DNA of 64,000 nt from Eledone cirrhosa (Eukaryota): the NCBI GenBank assembly GCA_964016885.1, contig OZ024741.1, positions 341,868,001 through 341,932,000 of the forward strand. Direction: 5' to 3'. This document shows positions 1,203 through 53,770 of this stretch, piece by piece; position 1 is the stretch's first letter; the number at the start of each line of letters is the position of its first letter. The notes under the pieces were generated by a model. The model searched no databases, was not told the origin of the DNA, and worked only from the letters and a program-made list of their open reading frames with translations. A program made the translations under genes and the position numbers.

Positions 1203-4200
1203 CTTCCATTCTCACCGCAGCCATATACAGGTTGTATGTCACCTGCATTCATAGTGTTATGCTGCATGGCTCTGAAGCATGGGCAGTGACTGCAGAGGAT
1301 TTGCACAGGTGGGAGAGAAATGAAGCAAACATGCTTTGATGGTTGTGACCAGTTGTAGTGTGCAGAAGAGAAGATTGTGTTGATATGGATATGTGATGTG
1401 TATAAAGGATGACAGCTGCATAAAAAGGTGCAGTGCTTTCAAAATTGATAGAAGCTATAGAGTAGGAAGAGCAAAGAAGACTTGGGATGAAGTGATAGAA
1501 GCTATAGAGTAGGAAGAGCAAAGAAGACTTGGGATGAAATGATAGAAGCTATAGAGTAGGAAGAGCAAAGAAGACTTGGGATGAAGTGATAGAAGCTATA
1601 GAGTAGGAAGAGCAAAGAAGACTTGGGATGAAGTGATAGGAGCTATAGAGTAGGAAGAGCAAAGAAGACTTGGGATGAAATGATAGAAGCTATAGAGTAG
1701 GAAGAGCAAAGAAGACTTGGGATGAAGTGATAGGAGCTATAGAGTAGGAAGAGCAAAGAAGACTTGGGATGAAATGATAGAAGCTATAGAGTAGGAAGAG
1801 CAAAGAACACTTGGGATGAAGTGATAGGAGCTATAGAGTAGGAAGAGCAAAGAAGACTTGGGATGAAATGATAGAAGCTATAGAGTAGGAAGAGCAAAGA
1901 AGACTTGGGATGAAGTGATAGAAGCTATAGAGTAGGAAGAGCAAAGAAGACTTGGGATGAAATGATAGAAGCTATAGAGTAGGAAGAGCAAAGAAGACTT
2001 GGGATGAAGTGATAGGAGCTATAGAGTAGGAAGAGCAAAGAAGACTTGGGATGAAATGATAGAAGCTATAGAGTAGGAAGAGCAAAGAAGACTTGGGATG
2101 AAGTGATAGAAGCTATAGAGTAGGAAGAGCAAAGAAGACTTGGGATGAAATGATAGAAGCTATAGAGTAGGAAGAGCAAAGAAGACTTGGGATGAAGTGA
2201 TAGAAGCTATAGAGTAGGAAGAGCAAAGAAGACTTGGGATGAAGTGATAGAAGCTATAGAGTAGGAAGAGCAAAGAAGACTTGGGATGAAGTGATAGAAG
2301 CTATAGAGTAGGAAGAGCAAAGAAGACTTGGGATGAAATGATAGAAGCTATAGAGTAGGAAGAGCAAAGAAGACTTGGGATGAAGTGATAGGAGCTATAG
2401 AGTAGGAAGAGCAAAGAAGACTTGGGATGAAATGATAGAAGCTATAGAGTAGGAAGAGCAAAGAAGACTTGGGATGAAGTGATAGAAGCTATAGAGTAGG
2501 AAGAGCAAAGAAGACTTGGGATGAAATGATAGAAGCTATAGAGTAGGAAGAGCAAAGAAGACTTGGGATGAAGTGATAGAAGCTATAGAGTAGGAAGAGC
2601 AAAGAAGACTTGGGATGAAGTGATAGAAGCTATAGAGTAGGAAGAGCAAAGAAGACTTGGGATGAAATGATAGAAGCTATAGAGTAGGAAGAGCAAAGAA
2701 GACTTGGGATGAAGTGATAGAAGCTATAGAGTAGGAAGAGCAAAGAAGACTTGGGATGAAGTGATAGAAGCTATAGAGTAGGAAGAGCAAAGAAGACTTG
2801 GGATGAAATGATAGAAGCTATAGAGTAGGAAGAGCAAAGAAGACTTGGGATGAAGTGATAGAAGCTATAGAGTAGGAAGAGCAAAGAAGACTTGGGATGA
2901 AATGATAGAAGCTATAGAGTAGGAAGAGCAAAGAAGACTTGGGATGAAGTGATAGAAGCTATAGAGTAGGAAGAGCAAAGAAGACTTGGGATGAAGTGAT
3001 AGAAGCTATAGAGTAGGAAGAGCAAAGAAGACTTGGGATGAAGTGATAGGAGCTATAGAGTAGGAAGAGCAAAGAAGACTTGGGATAACGTGATAGAAGC
3101 TATAGAGTAGGAAGAGCAAAGAAGACTTGGGATGAAGTGATAGAAGCTATAGAGTAGGAAGAGCAAAGAAGACTTGGGATGAAATGATAGAAGCTATAGA
3201 GTAGGAAGAGCAAAGAAGACTTGGGATAACGTGATAGAAGCTATAGAGTAGGAAGAGCAAAGAAGACTTGGGATGAAGTGATAGAAGCTATAGAGTAGGA
3301 AGAGCAAAGAAGACTTGGGATGAAATGATAGAAGCTATAGAGTAGGAAGAGCAAAGAAGACTTGGGATGAAATGATAGAAGCTATAGAGTAGGAAGAGCA
3401 AAGAAGACTTGGGATGAAGTGATAGAAGCTATAGAGTAGGAAGAGCAAAGAAGACTTGGGATGAAGTGATAGAAGCTATAGAGTAGGAAGAGCAAAGAAG
3501 ACTTGGGATGAAGTGATAGGAGCTATAGAGTAGGAAGAGCAAAGAAGACTTGGGATGAAATGATAGAAGCTATAGAGTAGGAAGAGCAAAGAACACTTGG
3601 GATGAAGTGATAGGAGCTATAGAGTAGGAAGAGCAAAGAAGACTTGGGATGAAATGATAGAAGCTATAGAGTAGGAAGAGCAAAGAAGACTTGGGATGAA
3701 GTGATAGAAGCTATAGAGTAGGAAGAGCAAAGAAGACTTGGGATGAAATGATAGAAGCTATAGAGTAGGAAGAGCAAAGAAGACTTGGGATGAAGTGATA
3801 GGAGCTATAGAGTAGGAAGAGCAAAGAAGACTTGGGATGAAATGATAGAAGCTATAGAGTAGGAAGAGCAAAGAAGACTTGGGATGAAGTGATAGAAGCT
3901 ATAGAGTAGGAAGAGCAAAGAAGACTTGGGATGAAATGATAGAAGCTATAGAGTAGGAAGAGCAAAGAAGACTTGGGATGAAGTGATAGAAGCTATAGAG
4001 TAGGAAGAGCAAAGAAGACTTGGGATGAAGTGATAGAAGCTATAGAGTAGGAAGAGCAAAGAAGACTTGGGATGAAGTGATAGAAGCTATAGAGTAGGAA
4101 GAGCAAAGAAGACTTGGGATGAAATGATAGAAGCTATAGAGTAGGAAGAGCAAAGAAGACTTGGGATGAAGTGATAGGAGCTATAGAGTAGGAAGAGCAA

Positions 4201-5440
4201 AGAAGACTTGGGATGAAATGATAGAAGCTATAGAGTAGGAAGAGCAAAGAAGACTTGGGATGAAGTGATAGAAGCTATAGAGTAGGAAGAGCAAAGAAGA
4301 CTTGGGATGAAATGATAGAAGCTATAGAGTAGGAAGAGCAAAGAAGACTTGGGATGAAGTGATAGAAGCTATAGAGTAGGAAGAGCAAAGAAGACTTGGG
4401 ATGAAGTGATAGAAGCTATAGAGTAGGAAGAGCAAAGAAGACTTGGGATGAAATGATAGAAGCTATAGAGTAGGAAGAGCAAAGAAGACTTGGGATGAAG
4501 TGATAGAAGCTATAGAGTAGGAAGAGCAAAGAAGACTTGGGATGAAGTGATAGAAGCTATAGAGTAGGAAGAGCAAAGAAGACTTGGGATGAAGTGATAG
4601 GAGCTATAGAGTAGGAAGAGCAAAGAAGACTTGGGATGAAATGATAGAAGCTATAGAGTAGGAAGAGCAAAGAAGACTTGGGATGAAGTGATAGTAGCTA
4701 TAGAGTAGGAAGAGCAAAGAAGACTTGGGATGAAGTGATAGAAGCTATAGAGTAGGAAGAGCAAAGAAGACTTGGGATGAAATGATAGAAGCTATAGAGT
4801 AGGAAGAGCAAAGAAGACTTGGGATGAAATGATAGAAGCTATAGGGTAGGAAGAGCAAAGAAGACTTGGGATGAAGTGATAGAAGCTGACCTTGTACAAT
4901 AGTAAGGCAATGACACAGCACAGAATCAAGATCTCTGAGATTATGCAGTAATACTGAAGACCCGCCTTCCCATAAGCACAGGTTGAAACATACATCTAGC
5001 ATGCACCACCTTTCCCTCAATCCTCCCTACCCTCCAACGTCCTAACACTTCACCCACATCCTAACACCCCACCTCCCTCACACATGCACCTATATCTACC
5101 TCACCAATCCTCACGCACATCCCCCACCCAAGGTTCAAGCTCACACTTTAAAGTGATAGTTTTGGTGCCACAACTAAAAGAAGTCAGCCCACACTGTAAA
5201 GTGATTGTGTAGGTGTCACAATAAAATGTGCCAAGTCCACACCATTAAGTGGTTGTGTAGGTGTCAGAACAAAAAGCACCCAGTACACACTATAAATGTG
5301 GTTGGCATTAGGAAGGGCATCCAGCCATAGAAACCAAGCCAGAAACAGTTCTGTATGAGCAAGACACGATCACCTCACCTGACCTACCTCAAATGGGACA
5401 ACCCATCTAATTCCTGCTAGTCATTAAACAATGATGATGA
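1203..5440 (+). mobile_element. Decayed 3' part of RTE-clade LINE (family B, long 3' UTR) split by an internal minisatellite
   Basis: RLYVTCIHSVMLHGSEAWAVTAEDLHRWERNEANML then IDRSYRVGRAKKTWDEVIEAD, matching RTE C-termini at 24684-25121. Resumes at 4888 with gaagacccgcctt, 3' UTR ttaggaagggcatccagc and (ATG)n tail at ~5431-5440. Confidence 0.85.
1446..4887 (+). repeat. 47-bp minisatellite, 73 units (tgatagaagctatagagtaggaagagcaaagaagacttgggatgaag)
   Basis: tgatagaagct at 1446, 1493 and last at 4877; 4877-1446 = 73 x 47. Confidence 0.97.
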
Positions 5441-29912: not shown

Positions 29913-30420
29913 ATATTGTTATACTTTGGGAGGGTCATGTTGCCAATAAGAAACACACGCACCAGTTGCTTTCACTTCAATTTAATTTATTAAATATTTA
30001 TAAATTTACAAATTTATAAATTTCTGGTTGGTTGGTTGGTTCCACAACCAGATAGTTGTTTATATATATATAGTCATAGTTCTTTCGTCACACACTCTGT
30101 GACCTCTTCAGTGACTGGGGATTTCTTTCTTCGTTTCTGTGCCTTTCCTTTCTTCTATCCTACGCCAGAAAAATGGCGTAGGATAGAAGAAAGGAAAGGC
30201 ACAGAAACGAAGAAAGAAATCCCCAGTCACTGAAGAGGTCACAGAGTGTGTGACGAAAGAACTATGACTATATATATATAAACAACTATCTGGTTGTGGA
30301 ACCAACCAACCAACCAGAAATTTATAAATTTGTAAATTTATAAATATTTAATAAATTAAATTGAAGTGAAAGCAACTGGTGCGTGTGTTTCTTATTGGCA
30401 ACATGACCCTCCCAAAGTAT

Positions 30421-30428
<8 letters not shown>
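29913..30428. mobile_element. Head-to-head palindrome of a Penelope-like 3' terminal repeat (255-bp arms, 6-nt loop)
   Basis: Arms 29913-30167 and 30174-30428; homologous to 49032-49275. Confidence 0.9.
30225..30269 (+). ncRNA. Hammerhead-like motif in PLE terminal repeat (mirror 30072-30116 minus; paralogue 49177-49219 minus)
   Basis: AGUCA-CUGAAGA-g-GUCACA gagug UGUGAC-GAAAG aa CUA/UGACU; extra base after A9, very short stem III. Confidence 0.55.
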
Positions 30429-31306: not shown

Positions 31307-31308
<2 letters not shown>

Positions 31309-31402
31309 CATAAATTCAGGCTGTTCGTTTGTTTACAAACGGACAAAGCGGGCGTTATAATAAACGTCCGCTAAACTGATACGTACATATATGTATGTGT
31401 AC

Positions 31403-31501
<99 letters not shown>

Positions 31502-31992
31502 TGCTACTGTACGTCTGTATACATATATGTATGTACGTATACATACATACTTACATTTAAGTAAGTGCCGTACTAAGAGTGAGAAATGAAATTTCGTTTT
31601 CATTCTATTACAACTTATCGTTTTCGGTGCGCCTGGCCGACTAAACTCACTCGATATGCAAATTAAGCTGCTCAGCCGTTAATTTTCATAAGGAAAGTAT
31701 ATACTTTCGAACGTTCAACCATCTGGTAGAAGGGTATACGGTGCTGATGATAGCTAAGAAGCTTGAAACTAGTACATCGTTCCTGTGTCAGTGTTGAACA
31801 AAAAGGTGACGTGGTTGCCTTAACACCGTACGGCATAAATTCAGGCTGTTCGTTTGTTTACAAACGGACAAAGCAGGCGTTATAATAAACGTCCGCTAAA
31901 CTGATATGTATGTGTACCTGTATGTATATATATATATATGCATGCTACTGTACGTCTGTATACATATATGTATGTACGTATACATACATACT

Positions 31993-31998
<6 letters not shown>
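31307..31998 (+). mobile_element. Retrozyme-like non-coding partial tandem (period 525 including a TA expansion) with HHR at 31738-31780
   Basis: ggcataaattcaggctg at 31307 and 31832; ACGGUG-CUGAUGA-uAGCU aaga AGCUu-GAAAC ua GUA/CAUCGU. Confidence 0.75.
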
Positions 31999-47340: not shown

Positions 47341-47344
47341 ATAT

Positions 47345-48568
47345 AAACAAATAACGAAACGAAATTAAATTTCGTTTCGTTTGTAACTCACTTTTGTATG
47401 ACTGACGCTTAAACAATTAAGTTAAAAATGTACATCTACATATGCATACTGAAATACTAGTGTGTATATGAATACACACACGTATACATATGTAGGTGTA
47501 CCAAGTCTTTCACTGGTCGCTTTACAGTGAGCGGCCCAGCTATTCTGTATGTAAACACACAGACAAACCGGTTTTTAGAGTCATACTGGTTTTTCGGGGG
47601 AACACCTTCCCCCTATTCTCCAGAAAGCCAGACAAGGAATATTGAACTAGTTTCGTTGTTGTTACAACTCATCAGCAATATTTACCTATCTACCGGCCTT
47701 TCTGGAGAATTGTAAAAGCACATATCGTTATATGCTTTTTCTATGAAAATTAGTAGTGGGCAGACTAATTTGCATAGAGTGTGAGTACGCACCGGTTCAG
47801 CGGAGACGATAAAAACAAATAACGAAACGAAATTAAATTTCGGAGTTACAAACGAAACGAAATTTAATTTCGTTTCGTTATTTGTTTAGGGGGAATAGGG
47901 GGAAGGTGTTCCCCCGAAAAACCAGTATGACTCTAAAAACCGGTTTGTCTGTGTGTTTACATACAGAATAGCTGGGCCGCTCACTGTAAAGCGACCAGTG
48001 AAAGACTTGGTACACCTACATATGTATACGTGTGTGTATTCATATACACACTAGTATTTCAGTATGCATATGTAGATGTACATTTTTAACTTAATTGTTT
48101 AAGCGTCAGTCATACAAAAGTGAGTTACAAACGAAACGAAATTTAATTTCGTTTCGTTATTTGTTTTTATCGTCTCCGCTGAACCGGTGCGTACTCACAC
48201 TCTATGCAAATTAGTCTGCCCACTACTAATTTTCATAGAAAAAGCATATAACGATATGTGCTTTTACAATTCTCCAGAAAGGCCGGTAGATAGGTAAATA
48301 TTGCTGATGAGTTGTAACAACAACGAAACTAGTTCAATATTCCTTGTCTGGCTTTCTGGAGAATAGGGGGAAGGTGTTCCCCCGAAAAACCAGTATGACT
48401 CTAAAAACCGGTTTGTCTGTGTGTTTACATACAGAATAGCTGGGCCGCTCACTGTAAAGCGACCAGTGAAAGACTTGGTACACCTACATATGTATACGTG
48501 TGTGTATTCATATACACACTAGTATTTCAGTATGCATATGTAGATGTACATTTTTAACTTAATTGTTT
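47345..48568. mobile_element. Retrozyme-like 468-bp unit: ~1.07 copies minus joined head-to-head to ~1.45 copies plus
   Basis: Period 468 on both strands (47348/47816; 47893/48361); no coding signal. Confidence 0.8.
48297..48341 (+). ncRNA. Minimal type-I hammerhead ribozyme (identical mirror 47638-47682 minus)
   Basis: AAUAUUG-CUGAUGA-GUUGU aaca ACAAC-GAAAC ua GUU/CAAUAUU; perfect stems I and II. Confidence 0.85.
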
Positions 48569-48626
48569 ATATATATATATATATATCCATATCCATATAT
48601 ATATATATATCCATATATATCCATAT

Positions 48627-49031: not shown

Positions 49032-50980
49032 TATTGTTATACTTTGGGAGGGTCATGTTGCCAATAAGAAACACACGCACCAGTTGCTTTCACTTCAATT
49101 TATTATAATAAATTTATAAATTTATAAATTTCTGGTTGGTTGGTTGGTTCCACAACCAGATAGTTGTTTATATATTGTCAAAGTTCTTTCGTCACACATT
49201 CTGTGACCTCTTCAGTGACTGGGGATTCTTTTCTTTGTTTGTTTTTGTGCCTCTCCTTTGTTCTGTCCTACGCCATTTTGTTTCTGTGTGTGTGTTGTGT
49301 GCTCAGTCTGCGCATGCTCCACATCCGGGTGTCTGTGTGTGTTTATTTATTTGTTTATTTACATGTTACCGGTTGGTTGTTTGTTCTATGTGTGTGTGTG
49401 TTTTCATTTTGTCCTTAATTGTAAGTTGTGATGTTGCTGTTCCACTCATATTTTCTATTTAATTTTGGTTGTAATTCTTTTATGTTTATTGCCTCTGTGA
49501 TTTGTCTAAACATTGCGTCTTTTCTGTGTGTAGACTCTATTTTTATTTCTATGTTCTCTAATTTACCCTTATGTTCTATTTTAGCATGTTGGTAGAGTAC
49601 AGATGATTCTTTACTATCTTCAAGGTCTCGCCAGTGTTCATTTATCCGTTCCCCTACACTACGAGCTGTCTCACCTATGTACACTATATTTTTTTGTCCT
49701 ACTTAAACTTACCTATAGTAATAATTACCTAGACACATATGACCTTAGCAACCTGTGCCCTACAAGACCAGCAAGAGGCAGAGCACCTACCATTACCTCA
49801 ATGGCCAAGAAAACCCACACAGATAGATGAAACGGGTGGACCAGAGCCATACGGACACCCGAAAACCACGATGAACTAAAGAAAATGATTTCACATGCGA
49901 TAGGGGCCAGCATAAAACTAACCCTTAAGGAACATATGTTCAAATTTAATGGAAAAACATATGCCCAAGAGGAAGGAGCAGCCATTGGTGTTAGCATTGC
50001 AGGCGACATAGCTAACTTATTCATGGTATGGTGGGACAGTAGACTTAAACTTAAAGTTAAAGAACAATTAGAAGACCCCTTAACCCTGATAATGTACTCC
50101 CGCTACGTTGATGATATAAACATCGTAGTTAAGACACCCCCACTAGAGAACAGTCAGGAACTAGAGAAAAACACAATGGAAAGCATCCAGAAAATAGCTA
50201 ACTCCATCCACCAGAGTATTAGAGTTACTATAGACTACCCAAGTAAACACCCCAACCATCGATTACCTGTACTAGACACAGAGCTCTGGTTAGATACCAT
50301 TAATAACAAAAAACAAATCCTCCATTCCCATTATGCCAAACCCATGACTTCCAAACATCTGATCCACCGAAACTCGGCTGTTTCGGACCATACCAAAATC
50401 AACATACTGATTGCGGATTTGGGACGGGTGATGAGAAACGTGTCCCGCATGTGCACCCCCGAAGAACTAGAGAGACACATACAACACTTCATCCACCGTA
50501 TGCAGTTCTCTGGTTACAATCAGAGAGATAGAATCAGAGTGTATAGAGGAGCCAGAACCAAATGGGAAAAAATGGTAAATAATGACACAAATGGGACCTG
50601 CCCCTTGTATAAGAGCAAATTTTGGAATAGAATAGAAAGAACTAGGAATAAGGCTAATAGAATAAACTCATGGTATGATAGCAATAAATACCAGAGTGTA
50701 ATGTTCATCGATACAACCCCTAGAGGTGAATTAGCTTACAAATTTAGAACGGCCCTAGATAAACATAAACTCAATATTAAGATAGTAGAAAGACCAGGTA
50801 CCTCTGTAAAAACACTTATTAGCAAGACATGCCCTTTCCAAAGACCCCCCTGTATAGATAAGAAATGTATAACCTGTAAAATAAACCCCCATATTAACTG
50901 TAAAACTAGAAATGTAGTGTATAGCATAAGATGTACTGAAGGACAATGTAGAGACAAAAATATAGTGTACATAGGTGAGA
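49032..50980 (-). mobile_element. Penelope-like element with 5' inversion: GIY-YIG end plus terminal repeat on minus (49032-~49700), RT inverted on plus (~49720-50980)
   Basis: Plus: GAAIGVSIAGDIANLFM, YSRYVDDI, LPVLD, NVVYSIRC..IVYIGET. Minus: YIGETARSVGERINEH..RQITEAINI..LNRKYEW. Confidence 0.9.
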
Positions 50981-51170
50981 CATTGCTCCAGTTTACTCAC
51001 CTGTATATGGGGTCCCTACCATTCCACTGTAGAGTGGTCGTGGAGGTGCCACGGAAAAAAAGCACCCAGCACTCACTGTAAATGAGGTTGGTGTTAGGAA
51101 GGGCATGCAGCTGTAGAAATCAAGCCAAAATCAGTTCCCGTCCCACCTTTGCAAGCAGGGAAAAGACGGA
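50981..51170 (+). mobile_element. Chimeric-tail SINE fragment
   Basis: ttgctccagtttactca..gtggtcgtggaggtgcc..cagttcccgtcccacctttgcaagc. Confidence 0.8.
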
Positions 51171-52934: not shown

Positions 52935-53769
52935 ATAAACGGAAAAAATGAAACGAAATTTCATTTCCCACTCTTAGTACGGCTGTTACTTAAATATAAG
53001 TATGTGTACGTACATAAATATATGTATACAGACGTACAGTAGTATGTATATATATATACATACATGCACACATATATATATGTACGTATGGATTCACCGA
53101 ACATTTATTATAATACTCGGTGTGTTTGTAAACAAACATCCCGTATTAAGCCGTAGCGTCTAGCAACCATCGTTGCTCGTTTGTTCAACACTGACAAAGG
53201 AACGATGTACTAGTTTCAAGCTTATTAGCTATCGTCAGCAACGTATACCTTGCTGCCAGATGATTGAACGTCTGAAAGTATATACTTTCCTTATGCATAT
53301 TAACGGCTGAGCAGCCTAATTTGCATATCGAGTGGGTTAATCGGCCGGGTGCACCGAAAACGATAAACGGAAAAAAATGAAACGAAATTTCATTTCCCAC
53401 TCTTAGTACGGCTGTTACTTAAATATAAGTATGTATATGTACATACATATATGTATACAGACGTACAGTAGTATGTATATATATATATATACATACATGC
53501 ACACATATATATATGTAGGTATGGATTCACCGAACATTTATTATAATGCTCGGTGTGTTTGTAAACAAACATCCCGTTTTAAGCCGTAGTGCTCAGCCGT
53601 TAATATGCATAAGGAAAGTATATACTTTCAGACGTTCAATCATGCTGACGATAGCTAATAAGCTTGAAACTAGTACGGCGTTCCTTTGTCAGTGTTGAAC
53701 AAACGAGCAACGATGGTTGCTAGACACTAAGAGTGGGAAATGAAATTTCGTTTCATTTTTTCCGTTTAT

Positions 53770-53770
<1 letters not shown>
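52935..53770 (-). mobile_element. Retrozyme-like 428-bp partial tandem (minus) plus deleted inverted copy; HHR at 53202-53244 (minus), stem-I-damaged copy ~53644-53676 (plus)
   Basis: ataaacggaaaaaatgaaacg period 428 (52940/53368); ACGUUG-CUGACGA-uAGCU aaua AGCUu-GAAAC ua GUA/CAUCGU. Confidence 0.78.

Follow-up and report, generated by a model that had tools for sequence, protein, structure and literature searches.

Introduction

It has been shown that metazoan non-LTR retrozymes, as described in coral, mussel and axolotl, are short, low-GC, non-coding repeats of 150-450 bp that lie head to tail in high copy number, carry a canonical type I hammerhead ribozyme and co-exist with Penelope-like elements (PLEs) bearing minimal hammerheads (Cervera and de la Pena 2020, PMC7229834). 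PLEs themselves insert into AT-rich targets as partial tandems with an inverted, 5'-truncated arm and a one-sided tail of 30-40 nt between two end sites (Craig et al., 10.1101/2021.04.23.441226; Frangieh et al. 2024, PMC11167929), and work with a purified PLE has placed this tail between two internal start sites of reverse transcription, hammerhead cutting being dispensable for insertion in vitro (PMC11167929). Retrozymes are thus already known, and their mobilisation by PLEs has already been suggested, as a proposal and not a demonstration in the available portions of the two works concerned, which likewise name no transcribing machinery for these repeats (PMC7229834; 10.64898/2026.07.22.740005). 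For example, the tandem type I hammerhead repeats of vertebrates have been proposed to be non-autonomous PLE partners on the basis of pseudo-LTR homology (Li, Clavereau and Pollet 2026, 10.64898/2026.07.22.740005); in that work only one of nine predicted Xenopus retrozymes cleaved in vitro, and the sampling as summarised there includes no mollusc. It has also been demonstrated that certain amphibian hammerheads with a palindromic helix III depend on dimers and cleave better in that form (PMC7229834; PMC6155905), and the hammerhead repeats of newt satellite 2 and of a schistosome satellite are reported to have internal promoters, of the snRNA-type Pol II class in the former and of the Pol III class in the latter (cited in PMC2220036).

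Here we describe a hammerhead repeat family of the octopus Eledone cirrhosa, starting from a 64-kb stretch of contig OZ024741.1 (the window, meaning the whole stretch of DNA that was analysed), in which an earlier note had drawn attention to a partial tandem at 31307..31998. The family shares with the metazoan retrozymes the canonical type I hammerhead and the short, low-GC, non-coding head-to-tail repeats in high copy number, although its usual unit of 420-510 bp lies at or above their size range, and whereas circles and cleavage have been demonstrated for them, those of the unit described here are predicted from its sequence (PMC7229834). Its helix III has the form of one base pair plus a palindromic tetraloop seen in axolotl HHR_Amex1, and some of its types resemble HHR_Amex2, and not the efficient invertebrate form, in having U·U as the basal pair of helix II (PMC7229834). 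The fixed ends mapped below have no counterpart in the account of metazoan retrozymes, as far as its available portions go (PMC7229834). They resemble those of PLEs in the partial tandems, the inverted 5'-truncated arm, the one-sided tail between two end sites and the AT-rich target, but the tail is about 60-70 nt long, there is no ORF, and the hammerhead is canonical and not minimal (10.1101/2021.04.23.441226; PMC11167929). Finally, the link to PLEs rests in vertebrate retrozymes on pseudo-LTR homology and here on insertion anatomy, no homologous pseudo-LTR having been found in the one PLE family compared (10.64898/2026.07.22.740005). Searches of titles and abstracts on octopus or cephalopod hammerhead ribozymes and on Pol III promoters of retrozymes returned no description of the family, a result on which the supplements of PMC7229834 and 10.64898/2026.07.22.740005 may bear. 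It is a new family within a known class of retroelements.

Hammerheads in the window and anatomy of the units

The window contains five matches to the hammerhead core pattern CTGANGA-N14-GAAAC-NN-GTH, against 0.03 expected (Table 1), and the units that carry them are referred to below as type A (31 kb), type B (48 kb) and type C (53 kb). The type A copy has a period of 525, which derives from an expanded internal TA tract, and holds a single hammerhead with the CUGANGA / GAAA / UH core and open helix I of type I, predicted to cut after A31774. At the gathering score, Rfam gave no hit in the 64-kb window, the HH9 model giving only a weak match of 18.1 bits to 31732..31784 against a cut-off of 52. 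One of the two type C cores, at 53645-53675, has lost the 5' arm of helix I. In keeping with retrozymes, the family is made up of short tandem repeats, non-coding and low in GC, every unit of which bears a type I hammerhead, and it has neither a protein nor an LTR-type structure.

Table 1. Positions, strands and character of the features mapped in the 64-kb window
Feature	Position	Strand	Remarks
Hammerhead cores	31744, 47645, 48304, 53208, 53645	+, -, +, -, +	Core pattern match
Type A insertion	31307..31998	+	Single arm, ~1.4 units, (TA)n on both sides; other genomic copies 98-99% identical
Tail of type A	31557..31618	+	Between short end site (after ~31556) and long end site (after 31618)
Conserved block TATGCAAATTA(G; A in 31-kb copy) ... 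TAATTTTCATA	31655..31690	+	Match to U6/U6atac -77 motif; imperfect inverted repeat
16-bp palindrome	31693..31708	+	Encloses TATA-like word 31698-31703, 42 nt past motif ATG
Type I hammerhead	31732..31784	+	Core pattern, covariation, RNAalifold
Helix Ib	31732-34/31782-84	+	Part of 31732..31784 hammerhead
Bulge	31735-37	+	Between helix Ib and helix I
Helix I	31738-43/31775-80	+	ACGGUG/CAUCGU
Core	31744-50 and 31765-67	+	Whole core match spans 31744-31774
Helix II	31751-64	+	U·U at base
Helix III hexamer	31768-73	+	ACTAGT, palindromic
3' end of 31-kb copy	31991..31998	+	Short end site running into (TA)n
Type B inverted arm	47341..47842	-	467-bp unit, long-site end; core 47645-47675
Type B forward arm	47893..48569	+	Short-site end; core 48304-48334
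P49 fragment	49035..51000		Penelope-like; candidate partner, outside the retrozyme unit
P49 inverted pseudo-LTR piece	49035-49693	-	With minimal hammerhead
P49 RT + GIY-YIG ORF piece	49831-51000	+	
Type C arm	52935..53591	-	~428-bp unit, long-site end; core 53208-53238
Type C opposite arm	53591..53770	+	Internal deletions; core 53645-53675

The three types are homologous beyond the ribozyme. Types A and C agree at 353 of 427 aligned positions and types A and B at 292 of 429, and outside the ribozyme the local score of A against B is 188, compared with a best of 78 in 100 shuffles. Reading all three copies also bore out the common order of blocks described in the earlier note, although some of the blocks had been quoted inexactly: at 53 kb the sequence is TAATATGCATA, and at 31 kb the gaaatttcgtttc block contains a fourth T. 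The tail of type A contains the gaaatttcgttt hairpin.

Several other repeats share the window. A 47-bp tandem array occupies 1446-4887 (73 copies, 97% matches), and the ORF translations, read by eye, include reverse transcriptase and endonuclease fragments at 33.1-41.3 kb on the minus strand and at 7.5-9.0, 28.4-29.3 and 51.7-52.9 kb, which we take to be LINE-like. A decayed second PLE-like type, with RT plus a GIY-YIG-like region at the C terminus, lies at 26.5-27.1 kb and 44.2-45.5 kb (minus strand), and reading by eye the DNA downstream of these fragments revealed no hammerhead. At 29917-30424 there is an inverted pair of P49 pseudo-LTR pieces with minimal hammerheads near 30115 (-) and 30226 (+); together with these and the P49 hammerhead near 49219, the window holds eight hammerhead-like cores.

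Covariation and structural constraint

It had been claimed that the hammerheads at 31 and 48 kb show full stem covariation. The stems themselves had been quoted correctly (helix I ACGGUG/CAUCGU at 31 kb against AUAUUG/CAAUAU at 48 kb; helix II AGCU/AGCU against UUGU/ACAA) and the compensatory change is there, but the word full goes too far, because six of the ten pairs of helices I and II are changed on both sides and four are unchanged. None of the ten has changed on one side only, and all remain paired, a pattern of double change with p ~ 1e-5 under a simple model. The earlier description had left out the base pair of helix II; the 48-kb type has G-C there, and the types at 31 and 53 kb have U·U. 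As to the 53-kb copy, it groups with the 31-kb type, adds no double change and has one helix I pair broken (U·U). For AC-UA-GU, a palindromic hexamer (ACUAGU) is a better reading than a stem of 2 bp closed by a loop of 2 nt, and the invariance of the core does not count as evidence, the copies having been selected by the core pattern.

A third lineage, type E, with a 310-bp unit, has changed its helices again, the pairwise probability of the double changes in helices I and II being about 1e-5 for A-B and A-E and 7e-5 for B-E. In an alignment of ten hand-picked rows, found via the core and representing three deep lineages (A/C/F, B and E), 11 of 16 pairs show double change and 95.6% of cells pair, whereas partners that had been slid along the sequence pair in just 39-50%; the covariation score was reached by none of 500 shuffles. 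As there are only three deep lineages, this covariation amounts to about a dozen events and not to 38 cells. The measure of further pair types gave no excess over shuffles (402 of 500 reached it), the helix II base pair is non-standard in six of the ten rows, and contigs of three other organisms yielded near-identical pieces at low depth with no new covariation. When no structure was supplied, RNAalifold recovered helices I, Ib and II. Covariation across three deep lineages thus supports helices I and II, and the covariation, the slid and shuffled controls and the RNAalifold result sustain the proposal of selection on ribozyme structure: judged by sequence comparison, the hammerhead is real and structurally constrained. 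In a retrozyme hammerhead such covariation is expected and is unsurprising by itself.

Family size and lineages

The core with the helix III hexamer ACTAGT has 40,487 matches in the 3.0-Gb genome, against 41 in the control, often in head-to-tail arrays. Cut-to-cut monomers measure 420-600 bp (65 units), their length following the internal TA tract. A genome search for other helix III words, which revealed the type E family, gave 20,093 matches against 99 in the control; ACGCGT occurs in 96 of the first 100 matches listed, all at the start of contig 1. The type E members (L227-L256) have the hammerhead geometry of types A-C and a 16-bp perfect extended helix I, but beyond the ribozyme no significant similarity links them with these types. 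Both large families have a palindromic hexamer in helix III. Among 179 distinct cores with intact helix I, a tally taken from the fetched loci and biased by how these were chosen, ACTAGT accounts for 167, ACGCGT for 9 and single variants for 3. A variant pattern with a helix II of N15-30 gave 1,145 matches, below the 3,923 of its control, and is mostly background. Three loci from that set (L168, L190 and L192) form a recurrent ACCGGT family that resembles the core in its CTGATGA...GAAACCGGTC and ends at a fixed point against (TA)n, but was not accepted as a hammerhead because its fold could not be confirmed.

The description of the family as old holds for its lineages, as the divergence of A from B indicates, but not for its copies: the closest genomic matches, of which only 40 candidates were scored for each type, are 98-100% identical for A, about 100% for B and 92-97% for C. 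Scars of A>G editing were not seen either: across 49 copies of type A and 26 of type B there was no strand excess, A>G changes numbering 16 and T>C changes 25.

Insertion ends and the candidate Penelope partner

The 3' ends of types A, B and C fall into two clusters at homologous sites, each followed by (TA)n. Counted from the cut, the short site lies at about 233 in A and B and about 214 in C, and the long site at 295, 304 and 273 in A, B and C, respectively, which leaves tails of about 60 nt in A and C and about 70 nt in B; the two ends of type E are about 26 nt apart. The junction of the type A long site with (TA) has 878 exact matches in the genome and none in the control. Among the first 90 of these, 42 reach back past the predicted cut site, 4 of them running to the edge of the fetched DNA, and 65 have an opposite arm. 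These opposite arms end at the short site in 48 cases, 47 of which run into TA, and at the long site in none; the others end within the TA tract (10), elsewhere (6) or at the edge (1). The 48-kb insertion has the same build, with inverted arms of which one is long-ended and the other short-ended, and the 31-kb copy is a single short-ended arm. An inverted 5'-truncated arm together with a one-sided tail between two fixed ends is the signature described for PLEs (10.1101/2021.04.23.441226), and judged by this anatomy it is likely that the retrozyme is copied by a Penelope-type element.

At the 5' side the ends form no clear pile-up at the cut, where 5 were counted and 2.1 expected (p = 0.07), and none at the predicted transcription start. 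As templates, circles and uncut multimers are therefore indistinguishable, and the latter fit equally well, since PLE insertion in vitro can do without hammerhead cutting. In addition, the 5' half of the ribozyme, which corresponds to monomer positions 402-451 and to 31725-31774 in the window, holds few 5' truncation points, one against 6.7 expected (p = 0.01), a deficit noticed post hoc.

The Penelope-like element at 49 kb, P49, combines the motifs YVDD, CxxC and NVVY...YIGET, and has 33,793 candidates genome-wide, with open frames of up to 1,257 aa among 106 scored. Its match to RVT_1 is weak (E = 5e-4, below cut-off), the full ORF matched no Pfam family and a PDB sequence search was uninformative, so its assignment to the PLEs rests on motifs and layout. 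Full-length copies (L356:2386-6066 and L357) have an open frame of 1,227 aa with both 3' end sites inside its first 30 codons; end sites at the start of the ORF have likewise been described for an Anolis element. P49 has two end sites in (TA)n, separated by 60 nt, and so shares its target with the retrozyme and its tail length with types A and C, the tails of B and E being of other lengths; a short-ended forward arm is joined by a long-ended inverted arm in three of the four longer regions fetched, two of which have the full frame. No alignment-level likeness was found between the P49 pseudo-LTR and the retrozyme unit in what was examined, and for this reason P49 is regarded as a candidate partner only. 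At L057:1214-1320 a seamless same-sense junction with short microhomology leads from a P49 pseudo-LTR into a type C unit near monomer position 12, the sole such case among 12 near-junction rows from 358 loci, and one that either template switching or deletion at a later time would explain. All three tails of A (window 31584-31593), B and C contain the word GAAAYGAAAT, which also closes the tail of P49; its positions differ, and it may be there by chance.

A U6-like block: promoter or hairpin

Outside the ribozyme the most conserved part of the unit is the block starting TATGCAAATTAG, which has 31,276 genome matches against 3 in the control. A word of this block, with small variation, stands at -76 to -78 in four U6 genes (L108, L109, L110 and L166) and, in the top match for U6atac, at -77, and thus represents an upstream motif common to host U6 and U6atac genes. 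It is absent from all 14 dispersed U6 copies (L150-L163), from seven other U6atac matches, from four U2 loci and from a U6 array copy that is interrupted upstream (L165), and its background is two non-retrozyme matches in 574 kb. Two other loci, L167 and L189, have the motif close to hammerhead-like cores but were left out of the count, one of them folding poorly and the other having the motif on the opposite strand. The host Pol III snRNA genes L108, L109, L110 and L317 have TATG(C/G)(A/T)AAT(T/G)AG at -76 to -78 and a TATA near -30. Like newt satellite 2 and the schistosome satellite, the unit would then be a hammerhead repeat with an internal promoter, here a putative one, and unlike them its motif matches the upstream word of host U6 and U6atac and not of U2 (PMC2220036).

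A promoter role for the block is somewhat favoured by this comparison. It is a serious possibility, if one falling short of even, that the ATGCAAATTAG block owes its conservation to an RNA hairpin, of which it forms one arm, or to the binding of an enzyme, transcription being by read-through. The block does pair with TAATTTTCATA, the pairing reaching z = -5.8 in type B although only -1.0 in type A, the TATA word sits inside a palindrome, the distance from ATG to TATA is 42-43 nt as opposed to 46-48 in four host genes, runs of T5-T6 within B and C would impede Pol III in reading through a whole unit, and the 310-bp type E family has no such motif. Against this reading stand the position of the word in host U6 genes and in the best U6atac match, its rarity in the background and its absence from dispersed U6 copies and U2 loci. 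In types A and C, moreover, the extended helix I begins 77 nt past the motif (at 31733 in the 31-kb copy), and both arms of the supposed hairpin are invariant between A and B and show no covariation.

Proposed life cycle and alternative explanations

The reading that we consider quite probable is that 31307..31998 is an insertion of a non-LTR retrozyme, a tandem repeat that encodes no protein and was likely written into (TA)n by a Penelope-like reverse transcriptase. Compensatory change keeps its helices, probably because a template must still fold and cut if it is to be copied. Arrays would be transcribed, perhaps from the U6-like motif in each unit, adjacent hammerheads would pair through the palindromic helix III hexamer and release monomers, and these would be circularised. 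A Penelope enzyme would then nick both strands of a TA tract and start reverse transcription internally at two sites, copying from 0.1 to more than 3 units. The double hammerhead is proposed by analogy with the amphibian form, whose helix III likewise has one pair and a palindromic tetraloop and whose cleavage is better in dimers. In types A and C the reaction may be slowed by their U·U in helix II. Having one hammerhead and a variant promoter-like block, the 31-kb copy is probably a dead end. The most specific version, in which every unit carries a host U6-type promoter, a double hammerhead forms through a covarying palindromic helix III and P49 copies the circle from two internal starts, is put forward tentatively, as its joint truth is rather doubtful.

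Among the alternatives, the units might be pseudo-LTR remnants of an autonomous Penelope-like element, the hammerhead having been selected in the parent and the arrays having grown by read-through or at the DNA level, with no independent circle. This we regard as unlikely, although Xenopus retrozymes have been placed as sisters of PLE pseudo-LTRs (10.64898/2026.07.22.740005), the ends bear the PLE signature and 5' ends do not pile up at the cut site, because the arrays are long and pure with no ORF between units, none of the first 95 loci from tblastn with three PLE proteins of the window shows an ORF joined to a unit, and the fold is canonical with an extended helix I, PLE hammerheads being usually minimal, as is that of P49 (PMC6155905). 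Selection by the host, with the copies acting as functional host RNAs, is very improbable. It would agree with the somewhat lower frequency of rare substitutions in the core (0.96%) and stems (0.7-1.2%) than in the flanks (1.75%), measured in 85 copies from 53 loci selected outside the ribozyme, but the difference between core and flanks falls short of significance (p = 0.08), the truncation points of copies are scattered, and the window itself contains broken ones (53645). The same figures mean that the check set in the earlier note, whether core bases vary as freely as flanks, was not cleanly passed. That the core has no clear protection in inserted copies is what would be expected if selection acts on replicating templates, and it is likely, on these sequence data, that the replicating element and not the host is the object of selection. 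That the paired changes arose by chance or through the alignment can practically be dismissed: there are only three deep lineages and the rows were chosen by the core pattern, but the pairwise probabilities given above, the slide and shuffle controls and the recovery of the fold de novo refute it.

Conclusions

The value of the retrozyme insertions in E. cirrhosa lies in their surroundings, namely ends that match the two-start signature of PLEs, a candidate partner with a full-length open frame and a promoter candidate that can be compared with host genes. Each step of the proposed cycle is testable by standard assays and, if the self-promoted, P49-copied cycle were true, it would name the mobilising enzyme of an animal retrozyme and permit its reconstitution in vitro.
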